Shown: positions 1,741 through 64,000 of the stretch, in pieces
Layout of the letters: every line of letters starts with the position of its first letter
Numbering within the stretch: the first letter of the stretch is position 1
Source of the DNA: Curvularia clavata
Taxonomy: Eukaryota
Length of the DNA stretch: 64,000 bases
Assembly: GCA_023920165.1 (NCBI GenBank)
Contig: CP089280.1
Location: forward strand, 2,666,001-2,730,000
Direction of reading: 5' to 3'
Program-made: the position numbers and the translations under genes
The notes under the pieces: generated by a model
Told to the model about the DNA's origin: nothing
The model's database searches: none
The model's input: only the letters and a program-made list of their open reading frames with translations

Positions 1741-2076
1741 ACCAGAAGGTCATGTGACTGGGGACCACGTGACTTAGGCCTACCTTGGAGCCTTGACCTT
1801 ATCTTCGCCACTTGTGTAGGCAATCTGCAAACACGCTCGTAGTTGGTTAGACTTGGAAGCGGAGACTAGACCAACGCCCACGCCATCCATCGTAAAATCG
1901 GGACACCAAGTCGCTCTTCTCCACCTGCCTAATTGACATGCCGCACTCCGACATGCTCGTCCCAATGGGGCTGCCGCCCGTTGCGCGTTAAGTACAGTAC
2001 CTACGTGCTTCATCTGACTGCTTGCGACATCTGCAATTCCATCTTGCACTACCTCTTGGCCCTTATTGCCAGCAGC

Positions 2077-4155
2077 ATGTTCCAGGAAAGTGCACCTATG
2101 TCTGCGCCTCTCCAGCCAGCACAAGACACGACCAGAATGCCACCACCTTCCCAGAACATCCTGCTGGCCAGTCGCGAGGGTAAGGCGAGCAGCGTCTTTG
2201 ATGTCGGTAGCTGCTGACCGCCACAGGCAACGTCGTGTGCGAGTGGGCATTGGAGACGGCGCATTCACCTCAGCCCGCCTACTATCGCGTGCTCCGGGTG
2301 CACCTGAGCCTCCCCCCCAAGACCGACCAATCTCTTCACGGCCAGACTATTCAAATAGCTCAACTTTCGCCTGGCTTGAACTCTCAGTGTTCCTCTGCCC
2401 TTGACTTTCTCGATTGGGCTGCACGCCTTGTTTGCGCGGGCAGCGGCGGCAGGCATGCGGCCACTGTCCTGATAATCTTACCTGCCCAAGACGGATGCAT
2501 TGTGCGTGCAGACATACTCCGCCAGCGCCTGGCCACCAGCAAGTCGATTGAACGAGTCGAGGAGTTTGTCTCCCTCGGTCAGCATATTACTGCCTTCCAG
2601 GAGAGCCAAGGTGCAAGCACAGACCTGCTCAGCATCCTAAGCTACGCCGCTGGTGCCATTCTAGAACAGCAACATATCCAAAGCTCGCCAAGCGGGAGCC
2701 AAGAGCTGCAGGCCAGGCTTGCTTTCCCATGGATCTGTCAGTTACCTCGCATCTCGCTCATCACTTCCGTTGTAATGCTAACAACTACCAGGTCCTGCTC
2801 CATGGACCCCGAAACGGCTGGTCCTCGTCGGCTGCAGGCCTGAAGTCATCATGGAGAAGTGGCTAACAGCAGCCTTCAACCTTGGCATCCACATCACCAT
2901 CGTCGGACACCATGGCCGATGGCTGCAGCACCAGGGCTTCAGCCAGGCTGTGGAAAAGTATATCGCTATCGACATGGAGCTAGATGGCGGCTTGGCTGAT
3001 CGCATTGCCGACGCCCTCATCAAAGATGGCACCGCCTACGACGGCATCACCACCTTCACCGACATCTATTTCGTTGACGTTGCAAGGGCTGCAATTCGTC
3101 TCAAACTACCCACAGCGCCCTTGTCGGCCGTGGAAACCGCCGTCGACAAGTACAAGACTCGATCTCTGTTCCCAGGAGACTGCCACTCTTTCCAAGTCGG
3201 CAGCTCCGCAGAGCTTCGCCAATCCATATCGGACGGTCTCGTCACAGCATACCCGCTCATTGTCAAGCCCAGCCAGGGCTGGGCCTCGGAGGGTGTCTCC
3301 AAGGTCACCAACGAGGCAGAGCTGTTTGCTGCCGTCGCTGCTCTCGAGCCTGCAAAACACGGCACTCACATTGTCATTGAGACATACCTTGACGGGCCCG
3401 AAGTCGACGCCAATTTTGTGCTGCAAGACGGAAAGATCCTCTTCTACGAGCTCATCGACGACTTTCCCTGCACATCGGAACGAGACGATCTTCCAGGCCA
3501 AGAGAATTTCTTGGAGACTGAGATGCTCTATCCTTCAAACCTGCCACCCAACGAGTCAGACATCATCAGAGACGAGCTGAGGAGTATCCTTGTCAAGCTC
3601 GGATTCCACACTGGCGTCTTCCATCTCGAGGCCCGAATCACCAACTCTTCAATGGCTTATACCTCGGCTGATGGTGTGGACTTGCGGCCTCATGGCAAGC
3701 AGTTGACCAAGACTCCAACCGTCACACTGCTCGAAATCAATCAGCGCGCGCCTGGCATCATGGCTCAGCATATCACGGCATTCAAGAGCGGGGTGGACTG
3801 GACTGCTTTGCATCTGCTCGCAGCTCTGAAAGATACCGTGCGCTTTACTGCCCTAGCGCACGAGTACGCGCCCGAGGCTCAACCCATTACTGCAATCGTC
3901 TTCATCAACACCGAGTTTCCAGGAACTTACAACGGCCAGTGCTTTGCTGTTGATCTGAAGAGGCGGCGCCCTGACCTCGGTGCCATGGTCTACCAAGGTG
4001 GCTCCTACTACCACTATACCAATCCCATTCCAACTGCACCCAACCTGGTTGGCCATTTGATTGTGTCCTCTGAAAAGGGCCGCAAACATATTCTTGCTGC
4101 GGCAAAGGAGATGCGGAGAGAAATCAGGCTTCCTATCACCCCTTTCCGGGCGTAG
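2077..4155 (+). CDS. ATP-grasp domain protein (L-amino-acid/peptide ligase-like), 3 exons
   Basis: Introns ~2180-2226 (gtaagg..ctgac..cag) and ~2737-2791 (gtcagt..gctaac..cag) join ORFs 1933/2235/2851 in frame. Motifs DKYKTR, YPLIVKPSQGWASEGV, IETYLDGPEVDAN, GVFHLEAR, LLEINQRAPG. Confidence 0.9.
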
Positions 4156-47232: not shown

Positions 47233-47315
47233 TAAGCTAGTCAGCTAATCTACAGTATCTGGGTGCGTACTTCTATACCCAGAATCAACTTAGTCTATAG
47301 TCGATCTGTCAAGAC
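47233..47315 (+). repeat. Fragment of a Copia LTR (same family as 49273), the target of the hAT insertion; it resumes at 63985-64000
   Basis: Reverse complement of the LTR end (taagctagtcagc...gtcaagac|tataatcg), with one mismatch. Confidence 0.93.
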
Positions 47316-47344
47316 TAGACTGGTAAATGGGTATGGGGCACCCG

Positions 47345-47575
47345 GCTCGGGTTGGGGTAGGGCTTGGGGCTATAGAGACTCGGGCTGGGGTAGGGCTGGG
47401 GCTGCTAAGAGTCGGGCTGGGGTAGGGCTGGGGCTGCTAAGAGTCGGGCTGGGGTAGGGCTAGGGCTGCTAAGAGTCGGGCTGGGGCAGGGCTGGGTTGC
47501 TTGGCACTTGGGCTGGGGTAGGGCTGGGTTACTAAAGAGTTAGGTAGGGGTAGGGCTGGGTATAGCCTGCCCAGC
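47345..47575 (+). repeat. hAT left subterminal G-rich tandem repeats (~32-bp unit gggctggggtagggctggggctgctaagagtc)
   Basis: Visible tandem array; related repeats occur at 63710-63970. Confidence 0.9.
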
Positions 47576-47699
47576 TAGATTACAAATAACTTTAGGCTAG
47601 AAAAGATTCGAATTTATTATAGTTTATTATTATAGTAGCTTTAAAAAGAACTTTAAGATAAAACTAATAGGATTTATTACAGTTGACTATTACGGTAGC

Positions 47700-49272
47700 G
47701 CGCAGGGCAGACACGCTTTCGTGGAGGAAGTGGTAACTCGTCCTCTACCTTATCCACTTCCTCTAGAGATTCTTCTATATCCTGACTCTGATATTAACTC
47801 CTACACTCCTCTATATCTGCTGGGAGCTTAAACAAATTACTAATATTATTAGAAAGTTGGATAGCTTTCTCTATAGGCTCGTCTAAGTCTCTATTAAGAC
47901 TCTCTATTTTATTAGAATTTGCAAATTTAAGAATTATAAGTTGTTGAATTTTTTTAGTAGAAAGCTAATGTCGACGATTGCTAATAACTTCTTTAGTAAT
48001 ACTAAAGACTCTCTCTACACTTATTTACGCAATTGGTATAGCTAGAATATCTTTTATAACTTGGGTAAGATAGGGGTATATAATCTTACTTGCTTTCTAT
48101 CACTCTAAGATATTAATATATTTCCATAAATTAATACTAGAGCTGGTTAGATATAGCTCTCTTTTTTAATAAGTTGGCCCTCTACTCTTTTTAATTTTCT
48201 AGCTTGAAGAATCTTAGTTTAAAAGAGAAATCTGGTTTGATTGTAATTGAAGTAAAGTAGGCCTTCAAAACTATTCTATGCTTAATACTCTCTAAGGAAA
48301 TAAGCTTAGTATTAACTATATAATTTCTTAATTATTATATTAAGCTAGATAATTAAGAAACTACTACTAGTAGATATACTTATCTTAAAACTCCTATATC
48401 TTATTCTATATCTTCTATTAGTATCTATCTGTAATAAATATCTGTAATAATACCTTGTAAGCTATAAGCTTTTACATTAGATCAAGAATCATCACGCAGT
48501 TGAATAAGAAGCCACGCTCTTTATCAGTTTTCGAGTAGTATTTACTCAACTTTACCCTCCCTTTCGCCGCCACAGCTCTCACCACTTATAGCCAGTTGCT
48601 ATTCTCTAAGTCTTCTCCTAAATCAACCTCCATCTAATTAAGAAAATTAAAAAGCTAATTATACATAAGCCAGATATATAGTATTTGAGGTTTTCGACTC
48701 TGACTTAGAGACATTATTGCAGTCTTAAAATGGCTAAGCATTTCAGTAACCATCTCAAGATACGACCATTCTTGTGCAGATAGTCGTAGTCTCTTAAGAT
48801 CCCAAGAATTAATATCAGTATTATTATCGGCCTCTGAGAGATTTTCAGTATGGATAGGAACCCTTAACGCGATCTCATCTTTAAGCCATTCATCGATATA
48901 TTGCCGAAGCTTAACTACGCGCTCACACATATTATATGTCGAGTTCCATCATATTCTAACATCACAGATAACACTAAGACGTTTTTTTAGTAGTAGATCC
49001 CGTTATATTGCGAGAAACCGTTCGTATCGCTAAAGAGATAAGTCAACTATAATACAGATTGCTCTAATCTATATTGTAGTTAGTATGTGATAAATAACTA
49101 TAATAAAAAATTCTTCTCTTGCGAAGTGAATTAGGGACTAAGATATTGGCATCTACTTCATTAATCTGTTATCTCTACAAATCTTATATATTATCTAACT
49201 CAGTAGAAGCTAATAGCCTTAAGTACTAGATAATATCCTAGACAACGAGGTTGATAATATAGGCTAAGTAGA
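47700..49272 (-). pseudogene. hAT transposase, C-terminal part (RIP-degraded)
   Basis: LAYIINLVV (decayed CxxH region), VR..WNSTYNMCERVVKLR, and the dimerisation motif YPYLTQVIKDILAIPIA.ISVERVFS..NRRH.LS. Confidence 0.9.
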
Positions 49273-49634
49273 TGTTGAAGTAATAGGTGGCTGCTAGTAC
49301 TACTAGTAGTAGACTTAGACAGCCTGATCGAGAGACTCTAGATAGACGAGAGATTGCTAGGGGAGAGAGTTAATAGATACAATTGATTTTGTATAAACTG
49401 CTCTGGTTTTTATCTACTAGCTATTCTACTACTATATATATTGGCTGGAGTAGATTCTAGAAGAATCTATCTAGTAGTAGCTTGCGTAATCTTTGGCGTC
49501 ATAGACAGATGTCTATAGATCGATTATAGTCTTGACAGATCGACTATAGACTAAGTTGATTCTGGGTATAGGAGTACGCACCCAGATACTGTAGATTAGC
49601 TGACTAGCTTAGATCTACAACACGCCCCCTTAAG

Positions 49635-51428
49635 CTAGGAAGCTGTAATTTGGGATATATCTACTAGATTTGCTCCAAGTAGAAAGTCTCGAGTCTTGTC
49701 GGCGCTTGTAGCCTTAGTGAGACTGTCGGCTAGTAGACAGCTAGTGTTTTGATATACTAGCTGGATCTGTTTGGTCTCTACCTTCTCACGGATAAAGTAG
49801 TATTGGATATCGATGTGTTTTGTCCTAGCGTGATAGGTAGGATTTTTGGTGAGTTGGATTGCACTTTGGCTGTCTGAGTAGACAGTAGTAGCTGTCTTGT
49901 CTATGTCTGGCAGTATTGGATATAGAGCTTTAATCTCTTTGATAAACTGGGTGAGATATAAGCTCTGTTTAACTGCTTCTCGGTAGGCCATGAATTCAGC
50001 TTCTGCGCTTGATAGTGCTACTGTCGGCTGTAGTTTTGACAGCCAAGAAATCGCGCAGTTGCTCTTGTTTGACTGGAGTAAAAATATGTATCCAGTGGTA
50101 GATCTTCTACTGTCAAAGTCACCCCCCCAATCTGCATCCGTAGATCCAATCAGTTTAATCAGATCTAAGTTATTTGGTGCAGATTGACTGCTTTTGATGC
50201 TGTTTTGGTTATCAGTACTGAGCTGATAGAGTAGTCCTAGCTGTCTTGACTGAGCTAGATATCCCCATAGGTAGTCTAGACTGCTGAAATGCTCGGTGCT
50301 CGGATTGGCCATGAATCTGGATAGAAGATTGACTGCGTAGGTAATATCCGGCCGAGTAAAAATGGATAGATAGATGAGAGAGCCAATTTGCTGCTGGTAC
50401 ATATTGGTGGCGTTTGGAGTAGCCGTTTGGCTGTTTCTGTTGAGCTTGATATTCTGTTGCAGTGGAGTCTGTCTTGGCTTAATATCTTGCTTATTGAATC
50501 TAGCAAGTAGCCTTTGTAGATAGTTTTCTTGGGTAATATAGATCGCTCGTCTAGATCTAATTACTTGGACTCCAAGAAACTCTGAGACGTCGCCTAGATC
50601 TTTGATCTCAAGCTTTGAGATAGCTGTTAGGTCTTTGAATAGCTTTTGAATACTTTGCTCTTGTTCTCCAAAAATAAGCAAGTCGTCTACGTGAGTAGCT
50701 ATAACAAGCTTCTGCTCGACATTGATATAAGTGGCAGTGTCAATAAACAGAGATTTGAAGCCTAGTTGTCCGAGTAGGCTTGCTAGTAGTTTCTGCCACT
50801 GTCTACTGGCTTGTTTTAGCCCGTATAGAGCCTTGTTAAGCAAGCAGACGTGCTGTGGATAGTGCTGATCTTGAAATCCTTCTGGCTGCTCGACGTATAT
50901 AGTCGTGTCGATTAAAGCATTTGGGAAAGCTTGCTTGACATCCCAGCTTTTTATATGCCAGTTTTGAGCTGCTGAAATGGCTAGTAGTAGCCGGATTAGA
51001 TCAGGCCGAGTAGTATTGGCAAATGTCTCGTAGTAGTTGACTCCAAGCTCTTGTTGAAAGCCTTTCGCTACCCAACGTGCTTTGAATATAAAATCGCCAT
51101 TTTGCTGGTATTTTTTGTTAAGTACCCAGCGGCCTTTGAGAACTGGATATTCGGACGGTCTTGGTACAAGCTTCCAAGTGTCGTTCTTTTGCAGCTGGTC
51201 TAGCTCGTTTTGCATAGCTAATAGATAGTGTTGACTGTCTTGGTGCTGTAGCACTTGAGCGTAGCTTTTTGGATCAGTGATATCCTTTGAAGTAAATAAG
51301 ACTTCTTCTAGGATAATGTCCTCTGCTGCTATTTCTGGTGGAGCTTTTTGATTAGTGGATAGAGCTAATTCTGCTGGCTTGGCTTTCTTTTTGATCAAAA
51401 CAATCGGATTTCTTCCAACTACTCTCAT
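49635..51428 (-). CDS. Copia RT-RNase H (copy 1)
   Basis: KARWVAKGF, WDVKQAF, LYGLKQAS, HVDD, TDADW, SSAEAE, KHIDIQY. Confidence 0.93.
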   Translation of the reverse strand: MRVVGRNPIVLIKKKAKPAELALSTNQKAPPEIAAEDIILEEVLFTSKDITDPKSYAQVLQHQDSQHYLLAMQNELDQLQKNDTWKLVPRPSEYPVLKGRWVLNKKYQQNGDFIFKARWVAKGFQQELGVNYYETFANTTRPDLIRLLLAISAAQNWHIKSWDVKQAFPNALIDTTIYVEQPEGFQDQHYPQHVCLLNKALYGLKQASRQWQKLLASLLGQLGFKSLFIDTATYINVEQKLVIATHVDDLLIFGEQEQSIQKLFKDLTAISKLEIKDLGDVSEFLGVQVIRSRRAIYITQENYLQRLLARFNKQDIKPRQTPLQQNIKLNRNSQTATPNATNMYQQQIGSLIYLSIFTRPDITYAVNLLSRFMANPSTEHFSSLDYLWGYLAQSRQLGLLYQLSTDNQNSIKSSQSAPNNLDLIKLIGSTDADWGGDFDSRRSTTGYIFLLQSNKSNCAISWLSKLQPTVALSSAEAEFMAYREAVKQSLYLTQFIKEIKALYPILPDIDKTATTVYSDSQSAIQLTKNPTYHARTKHIDIQYYFIREKVETKQIQLVYQNTSCLLADSLTKATSADKTRDFLLGANLVDISQITAS

Positions 51429-51456
51429 GGAGTTGGCTGGTGGATTTGACTGGCTA

Positions 51457-51540
51457 GTATTTGGCTCAGTATTTGGCTCAGTATTTGGCTCAGTATTTGG
51501 CTCAGTATTTGGCTCAGCATTTGGCTCAGTATTTGGCTCT
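51457..51540. repeat. 12-bp tandem repeat (gtatttggctca x7) encoding an EPNT linker; also at 56396-56479
   Basis: Directly visible. Confidence 0.9.
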
Positions 51541-51569
51541 TCGTCAAGCTGCAGTTCTTCATCAGGAGC

Positions 51570-53830
51570 TTAATCATTGAACACTCCTTCTAGTATTTGG
51601 ACGTCTCTTGCAGTAGTAACCTTGTTAGTTCTAATATCGATTAGACGATATAGATTTTTACTAATATATCCAACAAGGTAGTACTGCTGGACACGAGAAT
51701 CTAGTTTGCCAAGAAACTCTTTTGGCTCTTTCTTGTATGCTAGAGATCCCCAGATTCTAACATTGCTGACGTCTGGTTTATATCCATATTTGGCTTCAAA
51801 TGGCGTCTTAAAGCCAATAGAGCTGTGCGGTGTTCTATTGTATAGATACACTGCCGCTAGTAGAGCTTCTGCCCACAGCTTATTAGGCATTTTGGCTTCA
51901 AATAGCAGAGCTCTTATCTTGTCAAATAACGTTCGGTTGATCCGCTCGGCTCCGCCTTTGCCTTCTGGATTGAATGGGGAGTTGAAAAAATCGGAGTTTA
52001 AATCCCTTTCTAGTAGCTAGCTTTTGCAGCTCTAGCGTGTCCAACTCATTGTCTGATTGGATAGCTTTGATCTGCTTTGAGTCTTGGACTTCTGCTTTCT
52101 TAACAAAAGCTTTGACTGGCTTGACTAGCTCTGATCTAGACGTGAGTAAGTCCACTTCTAGATATTTGGTGTAGTAGTCTAGAAAGGTAATATAATACCG
52201 ATAGCCCTTATTCGTCTTTGGCTTAATCGGCCCCCCTAGGTCGCAGTAGATCAAATCACCAAACTGGTGGACTGGTGTAGATATTGGATCTCTGCTTATT
52301 TTGCTAGCAAATTTGCTTCTCAAGCAAATCTCGCAGTTGCTAAATCCACTGCTGGTTTTGGTATTTGATTTGACGCCTTTGGTATTCTCACTTAGCTTAT
52401 TTAAGCTAGTTTTACCAATATGGCCAAAACGTCGGTGTAGAAGAGACGTTTGATCGTCTGGCTTAGACTGATCTGTTTGATTCGGTTGGACGGATTTGGC
52501 TGTCAGCTCTGTATTGTATGTCTCTGTATAGACTTGGCTAGTTTGGATATTGCTAACTGCAGTAAAAGTAGCAATATTTCTAGCGTATTGCCCCTTCGCT
52601 AGTATTTTGCTAGATAGCCTAATTAGGCTGCTAGTCTTTGAAAACTCGAATTCAGCTCCTTTTTGAACTGCTTGGTAGAGACTGAGTAGATTGACTTTGA
52701 AGTCCGGCACTAGTAAGACTTCTTTGAGTACTACTGTCTCGCCCGTACTCGTAAATTTAATTGGCACTTCGCCTTTGGCTGTTGCTTGTAGCAACGCAGT
52801 AGAGTTGCCCCATTTAATATACGTATTACTAACGCTGGTAAGGCTTCTAAAAAGCTGTCGGTCAGAGCAAATATGGGAGCTGGCGGCGCTGTCTAATATC
52901 CACTCAATCGACTTGGAAGACTCAGTGGATAGAGCAGCTTTGATATCGGCGATATTTGGATCGACTGAGACTACTGTAGATAGAGCTGTCTCAGGCTTAT
53001 AATATGTCCGACTGGGGCGTTTGCTGGGGTCTTTCTGCCAGCATTGGTCGACTAAATGTCCATTTCTCTTGCAGTGAGAGCAGTATTTTGGACTTTTGGT
53101 GGATTTTTGAGTAGCCAAAGTCATTTCGACGTCTTTTGACTGTGGAGCTTGGTTGGAGCTGCTAATTGGGCTCCTTTGGTATGGTCTGTAGCTCTTTTGG
53201 TAAGAGCTATTTGAGTTACTGCCGCTGCTGCTTCTAATCGATTTCTGGCGTCTTGATTCGTCCATAATTTGGTTGTATAAGTTCTCAAGATCAATCTCTT
53301 TGTTAGATCTAAAATCTTGAGTAATAGCTGTAACCAAATAGTCAAAGTCTGAGCTTAGATTATTGAGAATCAAAGCAGCAATGAATCGGTGCGGTAGTGC
53401 CAGATTTCGGCTCTCTAGACTAAGGACTAGTCTGTTGATTTTTTTGGAGATATATTTCGACGTTGTTTTGGCACTGCTGCACGGTCGTATTGATAAGATC
53501 TTTGCAAATTAAGAAGTCAGAGCTAAAGCCTTTTGGGCTATATAGCTTCTTTAGGTGATTCCATAGACTATATGGAGTTTTCATGTCTTTTGACTGTAGT
53601 AGAGGCCCATCGTCTAGACTGAGTCGTAGAGTAGACAGAGCTTTGATTTCTGAGCTTTTTAGCTTCTGATATCTCTCAGAGCCTTTACTTTGTTCAAGCT
53701 CTTGTGGGTCGACTGTTATAATCTCGTAGCAGTCTTGCTGTATAAGCACTGCTTCGATCCGTAGTGCCCACATGTCATAGTTAGAGCTGCCTTTGAGCTT
53801 TGGCACTCTAAATATGCTACTGTCAGCCAT
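51570..53830 (-). pseudogene. Copia gag-protease-integrase (copy 1), two frameshifts relative to copy 2
   Basis: Matches 56509-58764 except for indels at ~51975-51990 and ~53440 (homopolymers). Confidence 0.85.
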
Positions 53831-54573
53831 TTTGTGCTGCTAGTCTGTCTAGAAATATAGACTAGATAGCTGTTTGTAGTCTAGCGCAGTAAATAAGCAG
53901 TTACTGTTCTTACTATGAAGAACTCTGGCTGCTAGTCGATCGAGTTGATCTGTCTGCAACTAGCTACAAGAAGCTTCGGCTAACCCCTAACCAGAGTATT
54001 TAGCTGCGTTTGCGGCTCAGAGACTCCTAAACTGATAGGGTTTTTGCTTCAGTAGAGTTTCTCAGCTTTTTAGCCGTGGTTTACTCTTAACCCTTAGTAA
54101 CCCTAGCTTTTACTAAGAGACTAGCTATATTTATACTAGCTCTTACTTTAGTCTTATGCTAAGACTTGCTAGAATCTTCGATCGATAGACACGTAATCCG
54201 GGCTCATAACCTGTTGAAGTAATAGGTGGCTGCTAGTACTACTAGTAGTAGACTTAGACAGCCTGATCGAGAGACTCTAGATAGACGAGAGATTGCTAGG
54301 GGAGAGAGTTAATAGATACAATTGATTTTGTATAAACTGCTCTGGTTTTTATCTACTAGCTATTCTACTACTATATATATTGGCTGGAGTAGATTCTAGA
54401 AGAATCTATCTAGTAGTAGCTTGCGTAATCTTTGGCGTCATAGACAGATGTCTATAGATCGATTATAGTCTTGACAGATCGACTATAGACTAAGTTGATT
54501 CTGGGTATAGGAGTACGCACCCAGATACTGTAGATTAGCTGACTAGCTTAGATCTACAACACGCCCCCTTAAG

Positions 54574-56367
54574 CTAGGAAGCTGTAATTTGGGATATATC
54601 TACTAGATTTGCTCCAAGTAGAAAGTCTCGAGTCTTGTCGGCGCTTGTAGCCTTAGTGAGACTGTCGGCTAGTAGACAGCTAGTGTTTTGATATACTAGC
54701 TGGATCTGTTTGGTCTCTACCTTCTCACGGATAAAGTAGTATTGGATATCGATGTGTTTTGTCCTAGCGTGATAGGTAGGATTTTTGGTGAGTTGGATTG
54801 CACTTTGGCTGTCTGAGTAGACAGTAGTAGCTGTCTTGTCTATGTCTGGCAGTATTGGATATAGAGCTTTAATCTCTTTGATAAACTGGGTGAGATATAA
54901 GCTCTGTTTAACTGCTTCTCGGTAGGCCATGAATTCAGCTTCTGCGCTTGATAGTGCTACTGTCGGCTGTAGTTTTGACAGCCAAGAAATCGCGCAGTTG
55001 CTCTTGTTTGACTGGAGTAAAAATATGTATCCAGTGGTAGATCTTCTACTGTCAAAGTCACCCCCCCAATCTGCATCCGTAGATCCAATCAGTTTAATCA
55101 GATCTAAGTTATTTGGTGCAGATTGACTGCTTTTGATGCTGTTTTGGTTATCAGTACTGAGCTGATAGAGTAGTCCTAGCTGTCTTGACTGAGCTAGATA
55201 TCCCCATAGGTAGTCTAGACTGCTGAAATGCTCGGTGCTCGGATTGGCCATGAATCTGGATAGAAGATTGACTGCGTAGGTAATATCCGGCCGAGTAAAA
55301 ATGGATAGATAGATGAGAGAGCCAATTTGCTGCTGGTACATATTGGTGGCGTTTGGAGTAGCCGTTTGGCTGTTTCTGTTGAGCTTGATATTCTGTTGCA
55401 GTGGAGTCTGTCTTGGCTTAATATCTTGCTTATTGAATCTAGCAAGTAGCCTTTGTAGATAGTTTTCTTGGGTAATATAGATCGCTCGTCTAGATCTAAT
55501 TACTTGGACTCCAAGAAACTCTGAGACGTCGCCTAGATCTTTGATCTCAAGCTTTGAGATAGCTGTTAGGTCTTTGAATAGCTTTTGAATACTTTGCTCT
55601 TGTTCTCCAAAAATAAGCAAGTCGTCTACGTGAGTAGCTATAACAAGCTTCTGCTCGACATTGATATAAGTGGCAGTGTCAATAAACAGAGATTTGAAGC
55701 CTAGTTGTCCGAGTAGGCTTGCTAGTAGTTTCTGCCACTGTCTACTGGCTTGTTTTAGCCCGTATAGAGCCTTGTTAAGCAAGCAGACGTGCTGTGGATA
55801 GTGCTGATCTTGAAATCCTTCTGGCTGCTCGACGTATATAGTCGTGTCGATTAAAGCATTTGGGAAAGCTTGCTTGACATCCCAGCTTTTTATATGCCAG
55901 TTTTGAGCTGCTGAAATGGCTAGTAGTAGCCGGATTAGATCAGGCCGAGTAGTATTGGCAAATGTCTCGTAGTAGTTGACTCCAAGCTCTTGTTGAAAGC
56001 CTTTCGCTACCCAACGTGCTTTGAATATAAAATCGCCATTTTGCTGGTATTTTTTGTTAAGTACCCAGCGGCCTTTGAGAACTGGATATTCGGACGGTCT
56101 TGGTACAAGCTTCCAAGTGTCGTTCTTTTGCAGCTGGTCTAGCTCGTTTTGCATAGCTAATAGATAGTGTTGACTGTCTTGGTGCTGTAGCACTTGAGCG
56201 TAGCTTTTTGGATCAGTGATATCCTTTGAAGTAAATAAGACTTCTTCTAGGATAATGTCCTCTGCTGCTATTTCTGGTGGAGCTTTTTGATTAGTGGATA
56301 GAGCTAATTCTGCTGGCTTGGCTTTCTTTTTGATCAAAACAATCGGATTTCTTCCAACTACTCTCAT
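54574..56367 (-). CDS. Copia RT-RNase H (copy 2)
   Basis: Same protein as copy 1. Confidence 0.93.
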   Translation of the reverse strand: MRVVGRNPIVLIKKKAKPAELALSTNQKAPPEIAAEDIILEEVLFTSKDITDPKSYAQVLQHQDSQHYLLAMQNELDQLQKNDTWKLVPRPSEYPVLKGRWVLNKKYQQNGDFIFKARWVAKGFQQELGVNYYETFANTTRPDLIRLLLAISAAQNWHIKSWDVKQAFPNALIDTTIYVEQPEGFQDQHYPQHVCLLNKALYGLKQASRQWQKLLASLLGQLGFKSLFIDTATYINVEQKLVIATHVDDLLIFGEQEQSIQKLFKDLTAISKLEIKDLGDVSEFLGVQVIRSRRAIYITQENYLQRLLARFNKQDIKPRQTPLQQNIKLNRNSQTATPNATNMYQQQIGSLIYLSIFTRPDITYAVNLLSRFMANPSTEHFSSLDYLWGYLAQSRQLGLLYQLSTDNQNSIKSSQSAPNNLDLIKLIGSTDADWGGDFDSRRSTTGYIFLLQSNKSNCAISWLSKLQPTVALSSAEAEFMAYREAVKQSLYLTQFIKEIKALYPILPDIDKTATTVYSDSQSAIQLTKNPTYHARTKHIDIQYYFIREKVETKQIQLVYQNTSCLLADSLTKATSADKTRDFLLGANLVDISQITAS

Positions 56368-56508
56368 GGAGTTGGCTGGTGGATTTGACTGGCTAGTATT
56401 TGGCTCAGTATTTGGCTCAGTATTTGGCTCAGTATTTGGCTCAGTATTTGGCTCAGCATTTGGCTCAGTATTTGGCTCTTCGTCAAGCTGCAGTTCTTCA
56501 TCAGGAGC

Positions 56509-58764
56509 TTAATCATTGAACACTCCTTCTAGTATTTGGACGTCTCTTGCAGTAGTAACCTTGTTAGTTCTAATATCGATTAGACGATATAGATTTTTAC
56601 TAATATATCCAACAAGGTAGTACTGCTGGACACGAGAATCTAGTTTGCCAAGAAACTCTTTTGGCTCTTTCTTGTATGCTAGAGATCCCCAGATTCTAAC
56701 ATTGCTGACGTCTGGTTTATATCCATATTTGGCTTCAAATGGCGTCTTAAAGCCAATAGAGCTGTGCGGTGTTCTATTGTATAGATACACTGCCGCTAGT
56801 AGAGCTTCTGCCCACAGCTTATTAGGCATTTTGGCTTCAAATAGCAGAGCTCTTATCTTGTCAAATAACGTTCGGTTGATCCGCTCGGCTCCGCCTTTGC
56901 CTTCTGGATTGAATGGGGGAGTAAATCGGAGTTTAAATCCCTTTCTAGTAGCTAGCTTTTGCAGCTCTAGCGTGTCCAACTCATTGTCTGATTGGATAGC
57001 TTTGATCTGCTTTGAGTCTTGGACTTCTGCTTTCTTAACAAAAGCTTTGACTGGCTTGACTAGCTCTGATCTAGACGTGAGTAAGTCCACTTCTAGATAT
57101 TTGGTGTAGTAGTCTAGAAAGGTAATATAATACCGATAGCCCTTATTCGTCTTTGGCTTAATCGGCCCCCCTAGGTCGCAGTAGATCAAATCACCAAACT
57201 GGTGGACTGGTGTAGATATTGGATCTCTGCTTATTTTGCTAGCAAATTTGCTTCTCAAGCAAATCTCGCAGTTGCTAAATCCACTGCTGGTTTTGGTATT
57301 TGATTTGACGCCTTTGGTATTCTCACTTAGCTTATTTAAGCTAGTTTTACCAATATGGCCAAAACGTCGGTGTAGAAGAGACGTTTGATCGTCTGGCTTA
57401 GACTGATCTGTTTGATTCGGTTGGACGGATTTGGCTGTCAGCTCTGTATTGTATGTCTCTGTATAGACTTGGCTAGTTTGGATATTGCTAACTGCAGTAA
57501 AAGTAGCAATATTTCTAGCGTATTGCCCCTTCGCTAGTATTTTGCTAGATAGCCTAATTAGGCTGCTAGTCTTTGAAAACTCGAATTCAGCTCCTTTTTG
57601 AACTGCTTGGTAGAGACTGAGTAGATTGACTTTGAAGTCCGGCACTAGTAAGACTTCTTTGAGTACTACTGTCTCGCCCGTACTCGTAAATTTAATTGGC
57701 ACTTCGCCTTTGGCTGTTGCTTGTAGCAACGCAGTAGAGTTGCCCCATTTAATATACGTATTACTAACGCTGGTAAGGCTTCTAAAAAGCTGTCGGTCAG
57801 AGCAAATATGGGAGCTGGCGGCGCTGTCTAATATCCACTCAATCGACTTGGAAGACTCAGTGGATAGAGCAGCTTTGATATCGGCGATATTTGGATCGAC
57901 TGAGACTACTGTAGATAGAGCTGTCTCAGGCTTATAATATGTCCGACTGGGGCGTTTGCTGGGGTCTTTCTGCCAGCATTGGTCGACTAAATGTCCATTT
58001 CTCTTGCAGTGAGAGCAGTATTTTGGACTTTTGGTGGATTTTTGAGTAGCCAAAGTCATTTCGACGTCTTTTGACTGTGGAGCTTGGTTGGAGCTGCTAA
58101 TTGGGCTCCTTTGGTATGGTCTGTAGCTCTTTTGGTAAGAGCTATTTGAGTTACTGCCGCTGCTGCTTCTAATCGATTTCTGGCGTCTTGATTCGTCCAT
58201 AATTTGGTTGTATAAGTTCTCAAGATCAATCTCTTTGTTAGATCTAAAATCTTGAGTAATAGCTGTAACCAAATAGTCAAAGTCTGAGCTTAGATTATTG
58301 AGAATCAAAGCAGCAATGAATCGGTGCGGTAGTGCCAGATTTCGGCTCTCTAGACTAAGGACTAGTCTGTTGATTTTTTGGAGATATATTTCGACGTTGT
58401 TTTGGCACTGCTGCACGGTCGTATTGATAAGATCTTTGCAAATTAAGAAGTCAGAGCTAAAGCCTTTTGGGCTATATAGCTTCTTTAGGTGATTCCATAG
58501 ACTATATGGAGTTTTCATGTCTTTTGACTGTAGTAGAGGCCCATCGTCTAGACTGAGTCGTAGAGTAGACAGAGCTTTGATTTCTGAGCTTTTTAGCTTC
58601 TGATATCTCTCAGAGCCTTTACTTTGTTCAAGCTCTTGTGGGTCGACTGTTATAATCTCGTAGCAGTCTTGCTGTATAAGCACTGCTTCGATCCGTAGTG
58701 CCCACATGTCATAGTTAGAGCTGCCTTTGAGCTTTGGCACTCTAAATATGCTACTGTCAGCCAT
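56509..58764 (-). CDS. Copia gag-protease-integrase (copy 2)
   Basis: CSHCKRNGHLVDQC knuckle, WILDSAAS protease, HRRFGH..CEIC, YCDL..QSDN..AER integrase. Confidence 0.93.
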   Translation of the reverse strand: MADSSIFRVPKLKGSSNYDMWALRIEAVLIQQDCYEIITVDPQELEQSKGSERYQKLKSSEIKALSTLRLSLDDGPLLQSKDMKTPYSLWNHLKKLYSPKGFSSDFLICKDLINTTVQQCQNNVEIYLQKINRLVLSLESRNLALPHRFIAALILNNLSSDFDYLVTAITQDFRSNKEIDLENLYNQIMDESRRQKSIRSSSGSNSNSSYQKSYRPYQRSPISSSNQAPQSKDVEMTLATQKSTKSPKYCSHCKRNGHLVDQCWQKDPSKRPSRTYYKPETALSTVVSVDPNIADIKAALSTESSKSIEWILDSAASSHICSDRQLFRSLTSVSNTYIKWGNSTALLQATAKGEVPIKFTSTGETVVLKEVLLVPDFKVNLLSLYQAVQKGAEFEFSKTSSLIRLSSKILAKGQYARNIATFTAVSNIQTSQVYTETYNTELTAKSVQPNQTDQSKPDDQTSLLHRRFGHIGKTSLNKLSENTKGVKSNTKTSSGFSNCEICLRSKFASKISRDPISTPVHQFGDLIYCDLGGPIKPKTNKGYRYYITFLDYYTKYLEVDLLTSRSELVKPVKAFVKKAEVQDSKQIKAIQSDNELDTLELQKLATRKGFKLRFTPPFNPEGKGGAERINRTLFDKIRALLFEAKMPNKLWAEALLAAVYLYNRTPHSSIGFKTPFEAKYGYKPDVSNVRIWGSLAYKKEPKEFLGKLDSRVQQYYLVGYISKNLYRLIDIRTNKVTTARDVQILEGVFND

Positions 58765-59495
58765 TTTGTGCTGCTAGTCTGTCTAGAAATATAGACTAGA
58801 TAGCTGTTTGTAGTCTAGCGCAGTAAATAAGCAGTTACTGTTCTTACTATGAAGAACTCTGGCTGCTAGTCGATCGAGTTGATCTGTCTGCAACTAGCTA
58901 CAAGAAGCTTCGGCTAACCCCTAACCAGAGTATTTAGCTGCGTTTGCGGCTCAGAGACTCCTAAACTGATAGGGTTTTTGCTTCAGTAGAGTTTCTCAGC
59001 TTTTTAGCCGTGGTTTACTCTTAACCCTTAGTAACCCTAGCTTTTACTAAGAGACTAGCTATATTTATACTAGCTCTTACTTTAGTCTTATGCTAAGACT
59101 TGCTAGAATCTTCGATCGATAGACACGTAATCCGGGCTCATAACCTGTTGAAGTAATAGGTGGCTGCTAGTACTACTAGTAGTAGACTTAGACAGCCTGA
59201 TCGAGAGACTCTAGATAGACGAGAGATTGCTAGGGGAGAGAGTTAATAGATACAATTGATTTTGTATAAACTGCTCTGGTTTTTATCTACTAGCTATTCT
59301 ACTACTATATATATTGGCTGGAGTAGATTCTAGAAGAATCTATCTAGTAGTAGCTTGCGTAATCTTTGGCGTCATAGACAGATGTCTATAGATCGATTAT
59401 AGTCTTGACAGATCGACTATAGACTAAGTTGATTCTGGGTATAGGAGTACGCACCCAGATACTGTAGATTAGCTGACTAGCTTAGATCTACAACA

Positions 59496-60560
59496 GTAGA
59501 GAATAGTATTTTTACTTAGACTCCAGCTTATACCAAGTTATTATAGACCTTACTGAAGAGACTATATAAGAGTGCTATTATTACTAGCATTATTACAAGT
59601 AATAGATAGCAGTTTTTTTTAGAGTTCACTCCTAGAAAGAAGTTTCAGAACTTCATCTGCTATTAAAGCTCTAGTATGTCTCCCACAGATCGGTATAAAA
59701 TCCAAAAGCTTTTCTTTAAGTTACCATTAAGTATTAATATAGTAACCTTTGATTACAAGAAAACTAAGATAGTTACTTAAAGCCTAACTATCTAATGCAA
59801 GTGATATTTTTATTTCTTAGCCAAGATCATTAAAAAGCTCAGCTAAAGCCTTCTCAAATTGTAACTCAAACGCTAGCTTAAATTTATAACGGCTAATAAT
59901 CACAGCGTTAGGCTAGAGAAACTAGAGAAATCGTTAAAATGATAGCCGCTCAAATGTTCGGAAGCTCCAGTAGTTATCAACTACTACTCTTACTAGTTCT
60001 TATTCATATATCTCAGTTAAGTAGGCTAGTATTACGCGAGGATTAATATTTATTAGCGGTAAGATACTTTAGCAGAGTGAGTTCAATAGCTTATTGTGTA
60101 TAGGCGAAGAGATAAGCTAGCAAGTCTAGGTTTGACGATGTCTATAAAGATGCTTTATACCAATATTTCCAGCTGATAGGTGCGCGAGTATATAACTGCA
60201 GTTCGAGCAGAAGATATATAGACAGCCAGTTAGGACCTCTACAGCCTCTCCAAAGTTTGCCCAGATTTGGCTCGTACGACAAGAAGAGCCCCAGTATAGA
60301 ACTGGCTTCGAAGGATCTCAGGCCCATAGTATTTTATTCTACCACTCCTTCCAGTTTGAAATAATCGCTTTATTCTCTTTATTACTATTATTTTTAAGTA
60401 CTAGATACTAGACGAGTATAAGTATAACTTTAAAACCACCTTTATCTCAGTATAGAGCATTCATCTTAAAATGCGTAAGGATATCTAGCAGTTCTATAGA
60501 AGGCTCAGCCATTATAAAGATTATACCTATAATAAATAACTATAATAAATCAAAGTTACT
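59496..60560 (-). pseudogene. hAT transposase, N-terminal part (BED finger plus catalytic start), RIP-degraded
   Basis: TSQIWANF..IFCSNCSYILAH..GIKHLYRH, KISLALD, GRHT, LLSITC.NASNN. The frame continues across the Copia TSD into the C-terminal part. Confidence 0.88.
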
Positions 60561-60779
60561 AGATAGACAAATATCATCTGTAGAAAACTAGATATAATAG
60601 GAAGTTCTAAGTCCTCTAGCTTCTAGCATAGCTAAGATTGTCTAAAACACTAGTGTTGTTTAACATATATCTAAAGTAGGTTTTATATAAGAGAAAGTTT
60701 AGATCAATACAGGGGTTATACTATAATTATTAGCTAGAATAAACCCTAGCATAATACTCTAAACTCTAACTACTAGAGT

Positions 60780-62006
60780 ATTATTAGAGATATACTTAGA
60801 CAGCCAGCACTACTTAGACTTCTCTTCTTCAGCCTCTTCATCTTAATCCTCAGCCTCCTCTACCTTAGTACTATCAGCCCCCTCTAGAGCCAAAAAGCTA
60901 TCGTCACTACTATAGCCATCCTCATCCTCGTCTATAATCTCATCCTCGTCATCAACCTCTTCTTCACACTCATTACTATTATAGCCCTCAATATATAGCT
61001 TATTATCCTCAAAACGCGTATCTAGATCAAACTAGTTAAAAATAAAAATAGACTCTTCTTATCTATACTAGTTAGTCCTTAAATATAATAATAAACTATA
61101 ATAAACTTACTACTAGAAACTATCTATAGCAAGTTCTTTTTTCTTAGAAGAAAGATTCTCGCAAAACTTAAGCCACTCATCTCGTACTTACTCGCTCTCA
61201 AAGGCGTTATTATTTAGCTTAGCCAATCCTCAAAGATATTCTTTGCGTATAAGTAAGTCAACAACCCCCTTTCGACCATAGAAACGAGCAGAAACGCGTA
61301 ACCCCTTAGTAGAGGTATCAGACGAGGCGTCGCTAGAGGTAGTCTAGAGAATAAGCTAATGCCGTCTTTTGTCGATCTCATTCTAGATCTTAGACCATTT
61401 CGCGTACACAGCTTAGAAAGCAAACGCCATCCAATTAGCTAATAACTATTAGTAGATATCTATAATAAAAGACTATAATAACTTACCACTTCGCTTTTCT
61501 TTAAAGCGCTTAGATTTATACTCCTCAAGATAGCTCTTTATAATCCTATTCTTCTTATCCTCTCCGGCAGTCTTATACCATTCTTTCTCTTTAAGTAACT
61601 TAAGAAATTTCGCCCAAGCAGCGCAGTCAGCATCTTTAGCGCGTTGGAGAGCGGCTTCTTCCTCAGTACGTGACGCGGCGAGATCTCTCTATGCAATAGC
61701 TTGAGCTATATTACTAAGCTGACCTTGATATTAGACTCGCAGACTAGTTGGACAACCTTTTTAGAAACCTCCAGATCTATATTGCGCAATAATAAAATTA
61801 ATCTCATCTTACTCATTTTTAAAGCCCTACTAACGTTAGTATTTATTATAATAATAGACTAGAATTATTACTTTAGTAAGATCTACCCACTCCTACTTAG
61901 TAAAGTTCTTAGGTATTTGGGCAACGCGTGGAGGTGCTAGACCCTCAGATACGTCGCCATCAGCCTCTATTATAGACTCGCGCTTGATTTCTAGCGTACG
62001 CGGCAT
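60780..62006 (-). pseudogene. RIP-degraded multi-exon cargo gene with a strongly acidic C-terminal tract; unknown function
   Basis: ATG 62006 MPRTLEIKRES..; helical middle (..AAWAKFLKLLKEKEWYK..); tail ECEEEVDDEDEIIDEDEDGYSSDD..EEAED.DEEAEEE. GT-AG introns. 3' end is approximate. Confidence 0.65.
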
Positions 62007-62530
62007 TGTTAACTATAATAAAGTACTAATATAACGTCTAGTATAGTAAAAATAGGGAGAGAGAGGATGGTTACTAAGAGAGAGTAGGAAGTTTAGTAAT
62101 AGTCTACCTATTAAGGTAATTAGGGGTCCGTGCGCCCTAGATTTCGCGCTAGCGTTAGGCTAGCAAACAATATCTTTCATACAGCCAATATCTTAGATAA
62201 TAAAAGTTAGAGCGCTTTAATTTTAGTCTTATTTGAAAGCCCTAGAGTAGCTCTATCTAATAAGCCAGTTATCACAGTATTTAATCACTGCTTCGTTAAG
62301 TTATAGCGATTTCTTGCTAACTATCTTATAGACCCTTAGCAAGACCCTGGGTAATCCGTGTACTCACCTTCACCTTCACCTTCACCTACTCATATATCCC
62401 TAAAATTCTCAACTACTCTATAGCTAAGTATTTATCCACCAATCCTCTTAATCTAAATCTAACTTTCCCAGCCCAACGCCAAATTTCTCAACTCAACCCT
62501 ACTAGTTATCACAGAGATTTATCACGTACT

Positions 62531-63499
62531 ATGTTAGCAGTAGACGAGGTAGGGGGGCCAGACGATAAGTCGTTTGAGGAGATGGCAGAACGGTTAAATA
62601 TACTCCCGTCGCCTAAAAGACAGATATCTCAGCTGCTGTCACCTCGCAAATCAGAAGCTCTTAAAGACGAATTTGAGGTTTTAGGAGCTCAGATAACTAG
62701 CAATCCTACTTTTTCTACTAAAAGTAGCTAACCAAATCTATAAGTTTATCACAGTAATTTATCACAGAAAATAGCTAACAAATACTAGAACTACTACTTA
62801 CAATTATCCCTCCCCGCCCCATATCTCGACTAGTGGCTATCTTGCATCTTTTGCGTACGTTTATCACGGTAATTTATTACAAGTAATAGCTAACTAATAG
62901 TAGGACTGGCACTATATTCCATAGTATAGGTAGCAAAACCGCTCGTAAGCAGCCAGTCAATCATAGGCCGCCCACGCCTAAGCCCGACAATAAAAATCAA
63001 GAGTCGGAAAGCAGCAAAGAAGACAAGTCCGGCCCTCCTACACCGCCCAGTGCTCAACCATCTACGTCTGGCGCCTCTAAGAGGCGCAGGTTTAAGCCTA
63101 GCAGTAAGTTTATCACAGTTATTTATCACAGCAAGCGACTAATAATTACTAGCTATTACACTAAAAGAGATCAAAAGATTCCAGAAGTCTACTAATCTAC
63201 TCATTCCAAAGACTCGATTTATAAAACTTATTAAAAAGATTATAGAAGACGTATATCCGCAACACCCTCTACGTATCCAAAAAGAGACGTTGGAAGGTCT
63301 TCAAGAGGCTACTAAGTATTTCTTAGTTAGATTTCTTAAAGATATATTATATTATCACAGATATTAATCACAGCTACTAACAGATCTAGAATATAACATA
63401 AACGCTATCCATACTAAGAGAGTTACTATTCAGAAGAAGGATGGGGATCTTGTCAAGCACTATCTTAACAGGCTTGGCATAGGTGGTATTAAGTACTGA
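62531..63499 (+). pseudogene. Histone H3-like cargo gene (5 exons, RIP-damaged)
   Basis: Exons 62901-63103, 63153-63341 and 63390-63499 give ..GSKTARKQP..KRRRFKPSTITLKEIKRFQKSTNLLIPK..LRIQKETLEGLQEATKYFLVRFLKEYNINAIHTKRVTIQKKD, which aligns with the H3 histone fold. Two donors are mutated GT>AT. Confidence 0.9.
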
Positions 63500-63709
63500 G
63501 GGCTTTCATAATAGAGTATTAAGTACTAATAGCTTTTATAATTAAAAGATAGCCATAATTAAAAACTAGCTATATACTAGAAGTCAAATAAAAGTTTTAT
63601 AAGTTCTTAATTTTTAATTTACTACTATAATAATTATGCATAATAAGTCTTTAATATATACAGAGTATATATATATCTAATAACTAAGACCCAGCATAAC
63701 CTAGTACTA

Positions 63710-63970
63710 AGCAACCCAGCCCTACCCCAGCCCGCTTATTAAGCAACCCAGCCCTACCCCTACCCAACTCTTGACTAACCCAGCCCTGCCCCTACCCAAC
63801 TTAAATGCCAAGAGTTGGGTAGAAGCAGGGCTAGGTTGCCTAATAAGCGGGCTGGGGTAGGGCTAGGTTAGCCAAGAGTTGGGTAGGGGCAGGGCTGGGT
63901 TGCTTAGTCATCTAACCCAGCCCTACCCCTACCCAACTCTTAGCAGCCCTGCCCCAGCCCTGCCCCAGCC
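63710..63970. repeat. hAT right subterminal repeats (cccagccctacccc) in both orientations
   Basis: Reverse complements of the left array, with an internal inverted block at ~63810-63905. Confidence 0.9.
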
Positions 63971-64000
63971 CATTTACCAGTCTAGTCAAGACTATAATCG

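Follow-up and report, generated by a model that had tools for sequence, protein, structure and literature searches.

The closest described relative of the element treated here is a 5.6-kb hAT transposon of Pyrenophora tritici-repentis, which carries a central open reading frame (ORF) and a histone H3-like gene (H3L) and for which expressed sequence tags, with introns, are reported in the published account (Manning 2013, PMC3538342). A consensus of this element is contained in the supplement of a second study (Dhillon 2019, PMC6710886). The locus under study lies in a 64,000-nt stretch of Curvularia clavata DNA (contig CP089280.1, positions 2,666,001 to 2,730,000 of the forward strand), hereafter the window, whose own numbering is used throughout. 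The window contains an hAT element that features the same three genes—transposase, central ORF, and H3-like gene—in the same order and orientation as the Pyrenophora element. As far as the published consensus goes, the two share very similar terminal inverted repeats, an 8-nt target duplication, G-rich subterminal repeats, and a short word (TTATCACAG in its exact form) that is paired at a fixed distance and occupies the same introns and leaders. The window copy differs in being degraded through RIP (repeat-induced point mutation), in bearing extra pair-bearing units upstream of the H3-like gene, and in being split by a nested retroelement. The initial annotation had read the setting as an hAT element with an H3-like gene and a neighboring cargo gene, the latter being the central ORF; tblastn and Pfam searches confirm this.

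The H3-carrying hAT elements of Mycosphaerellaceae likewise captured a histone H3 gene and were likewise hit by RIP. In the published comparison, they are unrelated in sequence to the Pyrenophora element, and their H3 copies have no introns (Dhillon 2019, PMC6710886). All exact words in the supplement of that study fall in the Pyrenophora consensus (five of five forward and six of six reverse); the six Mycosphaerellaceae consensus sequences given there contain none, although RIP could hide some. The main texts of the two studies do not mention the paired word. Among the full-text matches listed for the word or its reverse complement, none concerns fungal transposons—the identifiable ones are primers, microRNA, and guide sequences—and among those listed for later literature on the H3L element, nothing on cis-signals was found. 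The transposon family is known, and the paired word is a conserved hallmark of this family for which no description was found in print.

Introner-like elements are reported to exceed regular introns in length, to form stable structures, and to number hundreds of copies (PMC3609843). In the published descriptions, those of Dothideomycetes resemble the present case in that near-identical introns occur in unrelated genes and differ in presence and absence (PMC3609843, PMC4457414). In contrast, the introns of the family treated here are 45–50 nt long, unstructured, few, confined to the transposon except for one unrelated DUF3716 gene, and retained across long divergence.

The transposase of Ac and the TnpA protein of En/Spm bind short, repeated subterminal motifs, which are inverted at the two ends and overlap promoters. 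Here, in contrast, most copies are internal, they form a tandem with a fixed distance of 13 nt, the internal ones are in sense orientation, and a G-rich repeat fills the classical subterminal position. The Mer1 regulon of yeast relies on intronic splicing enhancers beside the donor, and intron 3 of the P element is subject to splicing control. The present element likewise features a shared word near the donor of a set of introns, with a possible transposase switch; unlike in these systems, the word also occurs outside transcripts and is reversed at the ends. As a candidate control signal of this transposon family, the word provides a handle on the coordination of the three genes and on the question of why a histone variant is carried. 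The practical yield is modest.

Paired word in the window

A count over both strands of the 64 kb yields seven exact copies of the word TTATCACAG. All of them are on the plus strand, span 62269–63360, and start at 62269, 62506, 62746, 62759, 63110, 63123, and 63352. Shuffled sequence is expected to contain a mean of 0.59 copies, and none of 100 shuffles reached seven. With one mismatch, 23 copies are observed against 16.5 expected, which is unremarkable window-wide; therefore, the signal consists of clustering and pairing. The six pairs of the initial annotation, with starts 13 nt apart, were all recovered in scans as part of a larger set of 13 pairs. Of their 12 units, five are imperfect, with one or two changes each (62282, 62519, 62861, 62874, and 63365).

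A relaxed pair pattern yields these 13 pairs, seven on the plus and six on the minus strand, and all are located in the two halves of one hAT element that flank a copia-type composite. The 6,784 nt of the element thus scanned contain 13 pairs against a simulated mean of 0.05 (first-order Markov, 300 simulations, none with more than one pair); no pair occurs in the remaining 57,206 nt of the window, host genes included. A RIP-tolerant score recovers the identical 13 pairs at full score and, at one mismatch, four additional degenerate pairs within the element. Two further one-mismatch matches, one in the transposase coding sequence and one outside the element, were regarded as chance. When distances between single cores are tallied, 13 nt prevails both in the element of the window and in each relative.

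The pair-to-pair distances of 237, 240, 115, 249, and 242 bp given in the initial annotation are correct for the window and are not kept in the relatives. A nucleosome-like period of approximately 240 bp was discarded, since the relatives do not keep this spacing. The six pairs lie outside exons, as had been claimed; beyond these six the rule does not extend to the degenerate pair at 47674–47695, which overlaps the stop codon of the transposase gene on the opposite strand.

Relatives and placement of the pair

Relatives were collected from metagenomes with a query of two perfect units four bases apart, which returned at least 121 loci. At least 13 loci from at least 9 contigs encode proteins of the family as judged by tblastn. 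Approximately 100 of the loci are not family members by the same measure, and many of these look like 13-bp tandem repeats or single chance pairs. The family contigs carry 2–10 relaxed pairs each, where simulations give at most 0.01. One of the contigs, 6,522 nt long, comprises a complete element that includes both ends and looks intact. That homologous elements would carry the pair and host introns would not, as anticipated in the initial annotation, is borne out: The same core at exactly 13-nt spacing occurs in at least 9 metagenome contigs and in the published Pyrenophora consensus, and the host genes of the window are devoid of it.

The pairs fall into three classes by placement. The first lies directly behind the donor of 45- to 50-nt introns, in sense orientation to the gene. 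The second lies 2–70 nt upstream of the start codons of all three genes, again in sense orientation, with one or two more sense pairs in the intergenic regions. The third faces inward and lies just inside the G-rich subterminal repeats at both ends, 0–130 nt past the stop codon of the respective terminal gene; on the transposase side, a unit on the opposite strand overlaps that stop codon. All three classes are present at matching places in the window copy, and at the place of the degenerate pair at 47674–47695, contig L003 and the 6522-nt contig have an intact pair. In the Pyrenophora consensus, as published, pairs can be read in all three introns of the central ORF, in both transposase introns, and in intron 1 of the H3-like gene; further pairs can be read upstream of the central ORF, at two places before the H3-like gene, and close to the right end. 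The word occupies every kind of noncoding niche of the element, including nearly all introns.

Contig L041 features the transposase, the central ORF, and the pairs without an H3-like gene; the terminal repeat follows directly after the central-ORF leader (3290–3495), and a TATA-like box is located downstream of the pair. Since the pairs are present there without the histone gene, the pair system predates the capture of the histone.

Conservation, spacing, and orientation

Pair-aligned instances from the relatives comprise 20 intron, 12 upstream, and 5 subterminal cases, amounting to 74 units. The core of both boxes is T(T/A)ATCAC; the boxes are arranged head to tail, exactly 13 nt apart, and this spacing is found in every instance examined. 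Rigid spacing of this kind is expected of protein dimers on DNA. The seven core positions are kept in 15–20 of 20 intron, 11–12 of 12 upstream, and 4–5 of 5 subterminal cases, the exception among the upstream cases being T/A at position 2 of the first box. Across all aligned units, position 2 is A in 7 of 74. Positions 8 and 9 are less conserved than the core, and the 4-nt spacer and the flanks vary, the spacer being T-rich in introns only.

The central-ORF proteins of the relatives are 37–47% identical to each other, and the proteins of the relatives are 32–50% identical to those of the window. Against this background, intron 2 of the central ORF interrupts the same codon and is 48 nt long in six elements. 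Its pair carries no or one core change in five of the six, the sixth being decayed (10 of 14 core positions), and the 7 nt that precede the branch point are different in each of the six. Four further sets of orthologous introns behave in the same way: The word is kept while other positions vary. The retention of the word in diverged introns of elements with 37–47% protein identity therefore points, at the level of sequence comparison, to selection on the word and not only to shared descent.

Internal pairs are all in sense orientation to their own gene. At both ends, the pairs that follow the terminal genes point inward. This results in an inverted arrangement near the ends, with the pairs at 47614 (plus) and 63625 (minus) in the window and likewise in the complete relative. 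The pair occurs in transcribed and in probably untranscribed settings. In addition, arrays exist: the complete relative has about 6 units at one end, where the window has its right subterminal pair, and contig L010 has about 75.

Pair-bearing introns

One intron module—donor, pair, branch point, and acceptor—is common to the three unrelated genes. In 20 of 20 aligned introns, the pair starts 4–12 nt after the first intron base. The exon joins of the H3-like gene model restore the histone fold without gaps. The initial annotation had placed pairs upstream of this gene and behind the donors of its four introns. The introns at 63104–63152 and 63342–63389 are also present in relatives; the units at 62740–62788 and 62855–62903, which are identical at 39 of 49 positions by manual count, may be either coding introns or leader sequence of the H3-like gene. 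The original start codon of the gene was probably located at 62927–62929 and has since been altered by a transition. A longer open frame upstream of 62927 would need these two 49-nt units as additional introns and contains one stop.

As far as the published consensus and the contigs allow, H3-like intron 1 is present in the window, in contig L006, and in the consensus and is absent in the 6522-nt relative. In H3-like intron 2, the pair is lost in L006, the 6522-nt contig, and the published consensus, with splice signals retained in otherwise intact genes; therefore, the pair is dispensable for splicing of that intron. As judged by the pairs in the intron of the DUF3716 gene, the array of L010, and the differences among H3-like introns, copies of the module arose at new places. 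It was probably inside the element that the histone gene gained its leader and the introns that bear pairs, as is also suggested by the word-bearing introns themselves. The family provides a tractable case of introns that were apparently copied from one module and then selected for something other than splicing.

In folding calculations, six of seven intron segments show z values of +0.66 to +1.88 and one of −0.30, two of the segments being offset by a few bases from the intron. With 48–49 nt in the window and no structure, these introns lack the greater length and the stable structure that characterize introner-like elements. In run X13, whose RNA origin is a guess only, one contig is devoid of exactly the 48 nt of central-ORF intron 3: 57 nt are skipped, and the 9 letters in between are, in our reading, the flanking exon bases in un-RIPed form. 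This contig could be spliced RNA or a processed copy. Other contigs of X13 are unbroken through the H3-like introns. Apparent joints in run X3 (59383/63352, 59378/63354, and 60550/61084) were rejected as mis-joins caused by the repeated word, having only 20–22 letters on one side. They start at the motif pair, except for the left side of 60550/61084, which is within two bases of a pair edge.

Possible function and reader of the pair

The paired word is probably a working, so far undescribed signal, because intact relatives keep it. We infer its action on DNA, its reader, and the effect of binding from the regularities given above, and the reading tentatively favored is that short paralogous introns carry a directional site on the DNA, which is recognized by a protein that binds in tandem. 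The initial annotation had proposed sites for a dimeric factor; the invariant 13-nt spacing and the conserved 7-nt core agree with such candidate sites. The reader would most likely be encoded by the element—either the Cys/His-containing N-terminus of the transposase or the central-ORF protein—with a host factor being less likely. With a pair ahead of each start codon, all three genes would come under one regulator, and the pairs near both ends face inward in the manner of end-linked sites. The remaining pairs occupy the only other noncoding space of a compact element, namely its 45- to 50-nt introns; these are paralogous, having arisen from one module by copying into new sites, the captured histone gene among them.

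Several points weigh against a DNA site read by an element-encoded protein. The set of relatives carries an ascertainment bias, as two perfect units were the query by which they were found and the best core match decided where instances were placed. The strict sense orientation and the contact with the donor fit a signal at the RNA level, whereas a plain DNA site needs neither. In three relatives, the start codon follows only 2–8 nt after the pair, which places the pair at or inside the transcript start. The central-ORF family has 63 representatives in a library of 1.84 billion proteins as judged by a profile search, and no homologues were found among longer proteins. A predicted structure of the central-ORF protein (356 residues, 37 sequences, mean pLDDT of 80) is all-helical with acidic ends; the model has no match at E <= 0.001 in Foldseek, and VIA-align yields generic helical hairpins at a best Z of 7.5, which is not evidence of a new fold. 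No known DNA-binding fold was recognized in the model, and the suggestion of the initial annotation that the cargo protein reads the sites gained no support. A conserved stretch in a disordered segment, which we take to be AT-hook-like, is the sole nucleic-acid-like feature of this protein. For the N-terminus of the transposase, the Pfam scan returned no family and no zinc finger; a Cys/His pattern is discernible by eye.

A signal at the RNA level is the next reading to be considered and is, on balance, unlikely. It posits that the pair is read in the pre-mRNA, both in the 5′ leader and right after each splice donor, and that the RNA-binding protein involved controls splicing or processing jointly for the three genes, much as introns are under stage-specific control in other transposons and, in yeast, among meiotic introns. 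The sense orientation of all intron and leader copies, the distance of 4–12 nt to the first intron base, the restriction of the T-rich spacer to introns, and the position 2–8 nt before the ATG, where the pair is probably transcribed, are all in line with it. The contigs of X13, RNA by guess, would be compatible with regulated retention and equally with DNA. However, the subterminal copies run antisense to their neighboring genes, no RNA structure is seen in the introns, and H3-like intron 2 keeps its splice signals without the pair in the three relatives named above, one of them represented by its published consensus. In addition, an exact spacing of 13 nt is unusual for RNA-binding modules.

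Alternatively, the pair could act as polar punctuation of transcription, a reading that is less probable still. Here, the reversed pair would stop the polymerase or trigger 3′-end formation, so that sense copies stop antisense transcripts and the reversed copies at the ends are terminators. This is the only reading that explains both orientations by one rule, and in the window, the 6522-nt contig, L003, and L006, reversed pairs indeed follow the transposase and H3-like stop codons at a distance of 0–130 nt. When read in reverse, pairs with the T-rich spacer give A-rich stretches of the type that serves as positioning elements. However, no reversed pair is found behind the central ORF, and a contig of X13, be it RNA or DNA, extends approximately 65 nt beyond the reversed pair in the 3′ region of the H3-like gene.

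In a speculative and rather improbable extension, the word would be the reason for the short introns: By inserting copies of a 48-nt intron with a site into coding regions, the element would plant sites that its own factor recognizes. The histone gene would have been fitted in this way after capture, and the sites, acting directionally, would pass sense and stop antisense or read-out transcription. If true, intron gain would here be driven by a DNA-level cis-element of a transposon.

The initial annotation had also considered that the introns were seeded by one introner-like unit. The part of this claim that stands is that the introns are paralogous copies of one module, which occurs in all introns of three unrelated genes. 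The near-duplicate units at 62740–62788 and 62855–62903, the presence and absence of H3-like intron 1 among elements, and the intron of the DUF3716 gene (L019 and L077), which opens with the same module, are also in favor. A functionless relic, in which the word is kept only by descent from one recently copied intron, is nevertheless improbable: The introns are old, short, and unstructured, their positions are conserved at 32–50% protein identity with only the word and the splice signals kept, the word also occurs outside introns, and no pairs are present in the host genes of the window. Sites for a host GATA-type transcription factor, as the initial annotation had read from the reverse strand, are very improbable. 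The reverse complement of the core does contain a GATA-like core, and paired sites are typical of fungal nitrogen regulators. Against this reading, the A at position 2 would destroy this core and is tolerated, the invariant last two core bases are not known to be part of a GATA site or needed by it, and the orientation is strict.

Genes, decay, and features of the window copy

The window transposase gene is split by the copia insertion and shows 42–50% identity to the transposase of an intact relative over four pieces, with stops read through (tblastn); the latter features the Pfam domain Dimer_Tnp_hAT (E of 3.6e-18). The central ORF is 32–36% identical to its relative in two exons at 61131–61826. 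The H3-like gene has a Pfam Histone match at 63155–63340 (E of 3.4e-11) and is 41% identical to its relative by tblastn.

Transposase and central ORF contain many TAA or TAG stops where the relatives carry Gln or Trp, and the pairs on the minus strand read T where those on the plus strand have C in CpA context. Contigs of four public runs were aligned to the right half of the element in 932, 431, 515, and 22 pieces, and the differences are almost all transitions. The many near-copies that differ by transitions therefore indicate a high-copy, RIP-affected family in at least two organisms. The element of the window is a dead, RIP-degraded member of the known transposon family.

The terminal inverted repeats of the window element are 16 nt long (47316–47331 and 63969–63984) and resemble those of the Pyrenophora consensus, as judged by eye from the first and last consensus lines. 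They are flanked by an identical 8-nt target duplication at 47308–47315 and 63985–63992. All features are listed in Table 1.

Table 1. Genes, repeats, introns, and pairs of the hAT element in the window (pair coordinates are given for both boxes)
Feature	Position	Strand	Basis and remarks
hAT transposon (transposase + central ORF + H3-like family)	47316..63984		approximately 6.5 kb of own DNA; RIP-degraded; interrupted at 49273-59485
Left subterminal G/C-rich short repeats	47332..47600		read from sequence; same repeat kind in relatives
Pair, left subterminal, inward-facing, RIP form	47614..47635	+	scans; same position occupied in complete relative
Degenerate pair (13/14 core positions) over transposase stop codon, opposite strand	47674..47695	+	RIP-tolerant score
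Transposase gene, 3′ part	47677..49272	-	RIP stop codons; tblastn against intact relative
Pair in transposase intron B	48429..48450	-	scans, orthologous introns
Pair in transposase intron A	49085..49106	-	scans, orthologous introns; donor destroyed in this copy
Tandem copia-type composite	49273..59485		nested in hAT; same 5-nt duplication at both borders
Transposase gene, 5′ part	59486..60512	-	tblastn; start codon read from sequence
Pair 14 nt upstream of transposase start codon	60527..60548	-	scans
Degenerate pair between central ORF and transposase gene	60721..60742	-	RIP-tolerant score; equivalent pair in L006
Central ORF (cargo) gene	60844..62006	-	three short introns; RIP stop codons; tblastn
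Central-ORF intron 3, 48 nt	61063..61110	-	pair at 61083-61104; scans, orthologous introns
Central-ORF intron 2, 48 nt	61439..61486	-	pair at 61460-61481; same position and 48-nt length in 6/6 elements
Decayed pair in central-ORF intron 1	61846..61867	-	orthologous introns, RIP-tolerant score
Strongly decayed pair 6 nt upstream of central-ORF start codon	62013..62034	-	by eye; below scan thresholds
Pair in divergent intergenic region	62269..62290	+	scans
Pair upstream of H3-like gene, 3 nt before first ATG of long frame	62506..62527	+	scans
49-nt intron-like unit	62740..62788	+	gene model; pair at 62746-62767; donor changed by G-to-A transition
49-nt intron-like unit	62855..62903	+	gene model; pair at 62861-62882
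H3-like gene core	62904..63499	+	exons run to 63103 and 63341, continuing from 63153 and 63390; last stop-codon base at 63499
H3-like intron 1, 49 nt	63104..63152	+	gene model; pair at 63110-63131; intron also in L006 and published consensus
H3-like intron 2, 48 nt	63342..63389	+	gene model; pair at 63352-63373; donor lost in this copy
Pair, right subterminal, inward-facing, 126 nt after H3-like stop codon	63625..63646	-	scans
Right subterminal G/C-rich short repeats	63690..63968		read from sequence

The subterminal repeats of the family consist of G-rich units with a period of approximately 11–33 nt in both orientations (also L037 150–430 and L038 3120–3410) and bear a resemblance to telomere-like or G-quadruplex-prone sequence. 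Among family members they vary slightly, whereas the 13-nt paired word does not.

The copia-type composite consists of two tandem retroelements that share long terminal repeats (LTRs), and their 644-aa reading frames are identical and intact. Intact copia frames inside a RIP-degraded hAT copy imply that the composite was inserted or duplicated after RIP of this copy or that it escaped RIP. The hAT element is itself inserted in a copia-type LTR: Its flanks at 47240–47315 and 63985–64000 form one LTR across the 8-nt duplication. The rest of the window is fungal as well, with host genes at approximately 1–41 kb (a Zn2Cys6 factor, a POT transporter, an amino-acid permease, and an aldo-keto reductase) and a gypsy-type element at 42–47 kb.

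Further occurrences of the word

The array of contig L010 is a satellite of approximately 1 kb (2019–3035), the 13-nt units of which contain the same 7-nt core. The contig belongs to the same metagenome series as several family members, and no transposon gene was recognized beside the satellite. In L019 (2137–3262; also in L077), a DUF3716-domain gene neighbors a gypsy-type integrase; the gene has an intron that begins with the donor-plus-pair module, and approximately 260 nt downstream of its stop codon there is a second pair. L008 (113–469), L026, and L046 are GC-rich contigs (0.56–0.57) with another H3-like gene and, at a distance of approximately 2.5 kb, a conserved perfect pair. These three H3-like loci yielded neither a transposase nor a terminal repeat of the family, and no family terminal repeat was found within 2 mismatches in L019/L077, L008, L046, and L010.

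Ten loci (L022, L025, L027, L029, L055, L073, L074, L083, L099, and L121) share one identical stretch, which features the word as a 13-nt tandem of approximately 3 units. With a GC content of approximately 45–50% in its contigs, this stretch is probably an unrelated conserved repeat of another organism. The gene models of the central-ORF proteins P0011 and P0012 read through intron 2, so that the translated pair appears as a short peptide, which shows further pair-bearing members of the family with misannotated introns.

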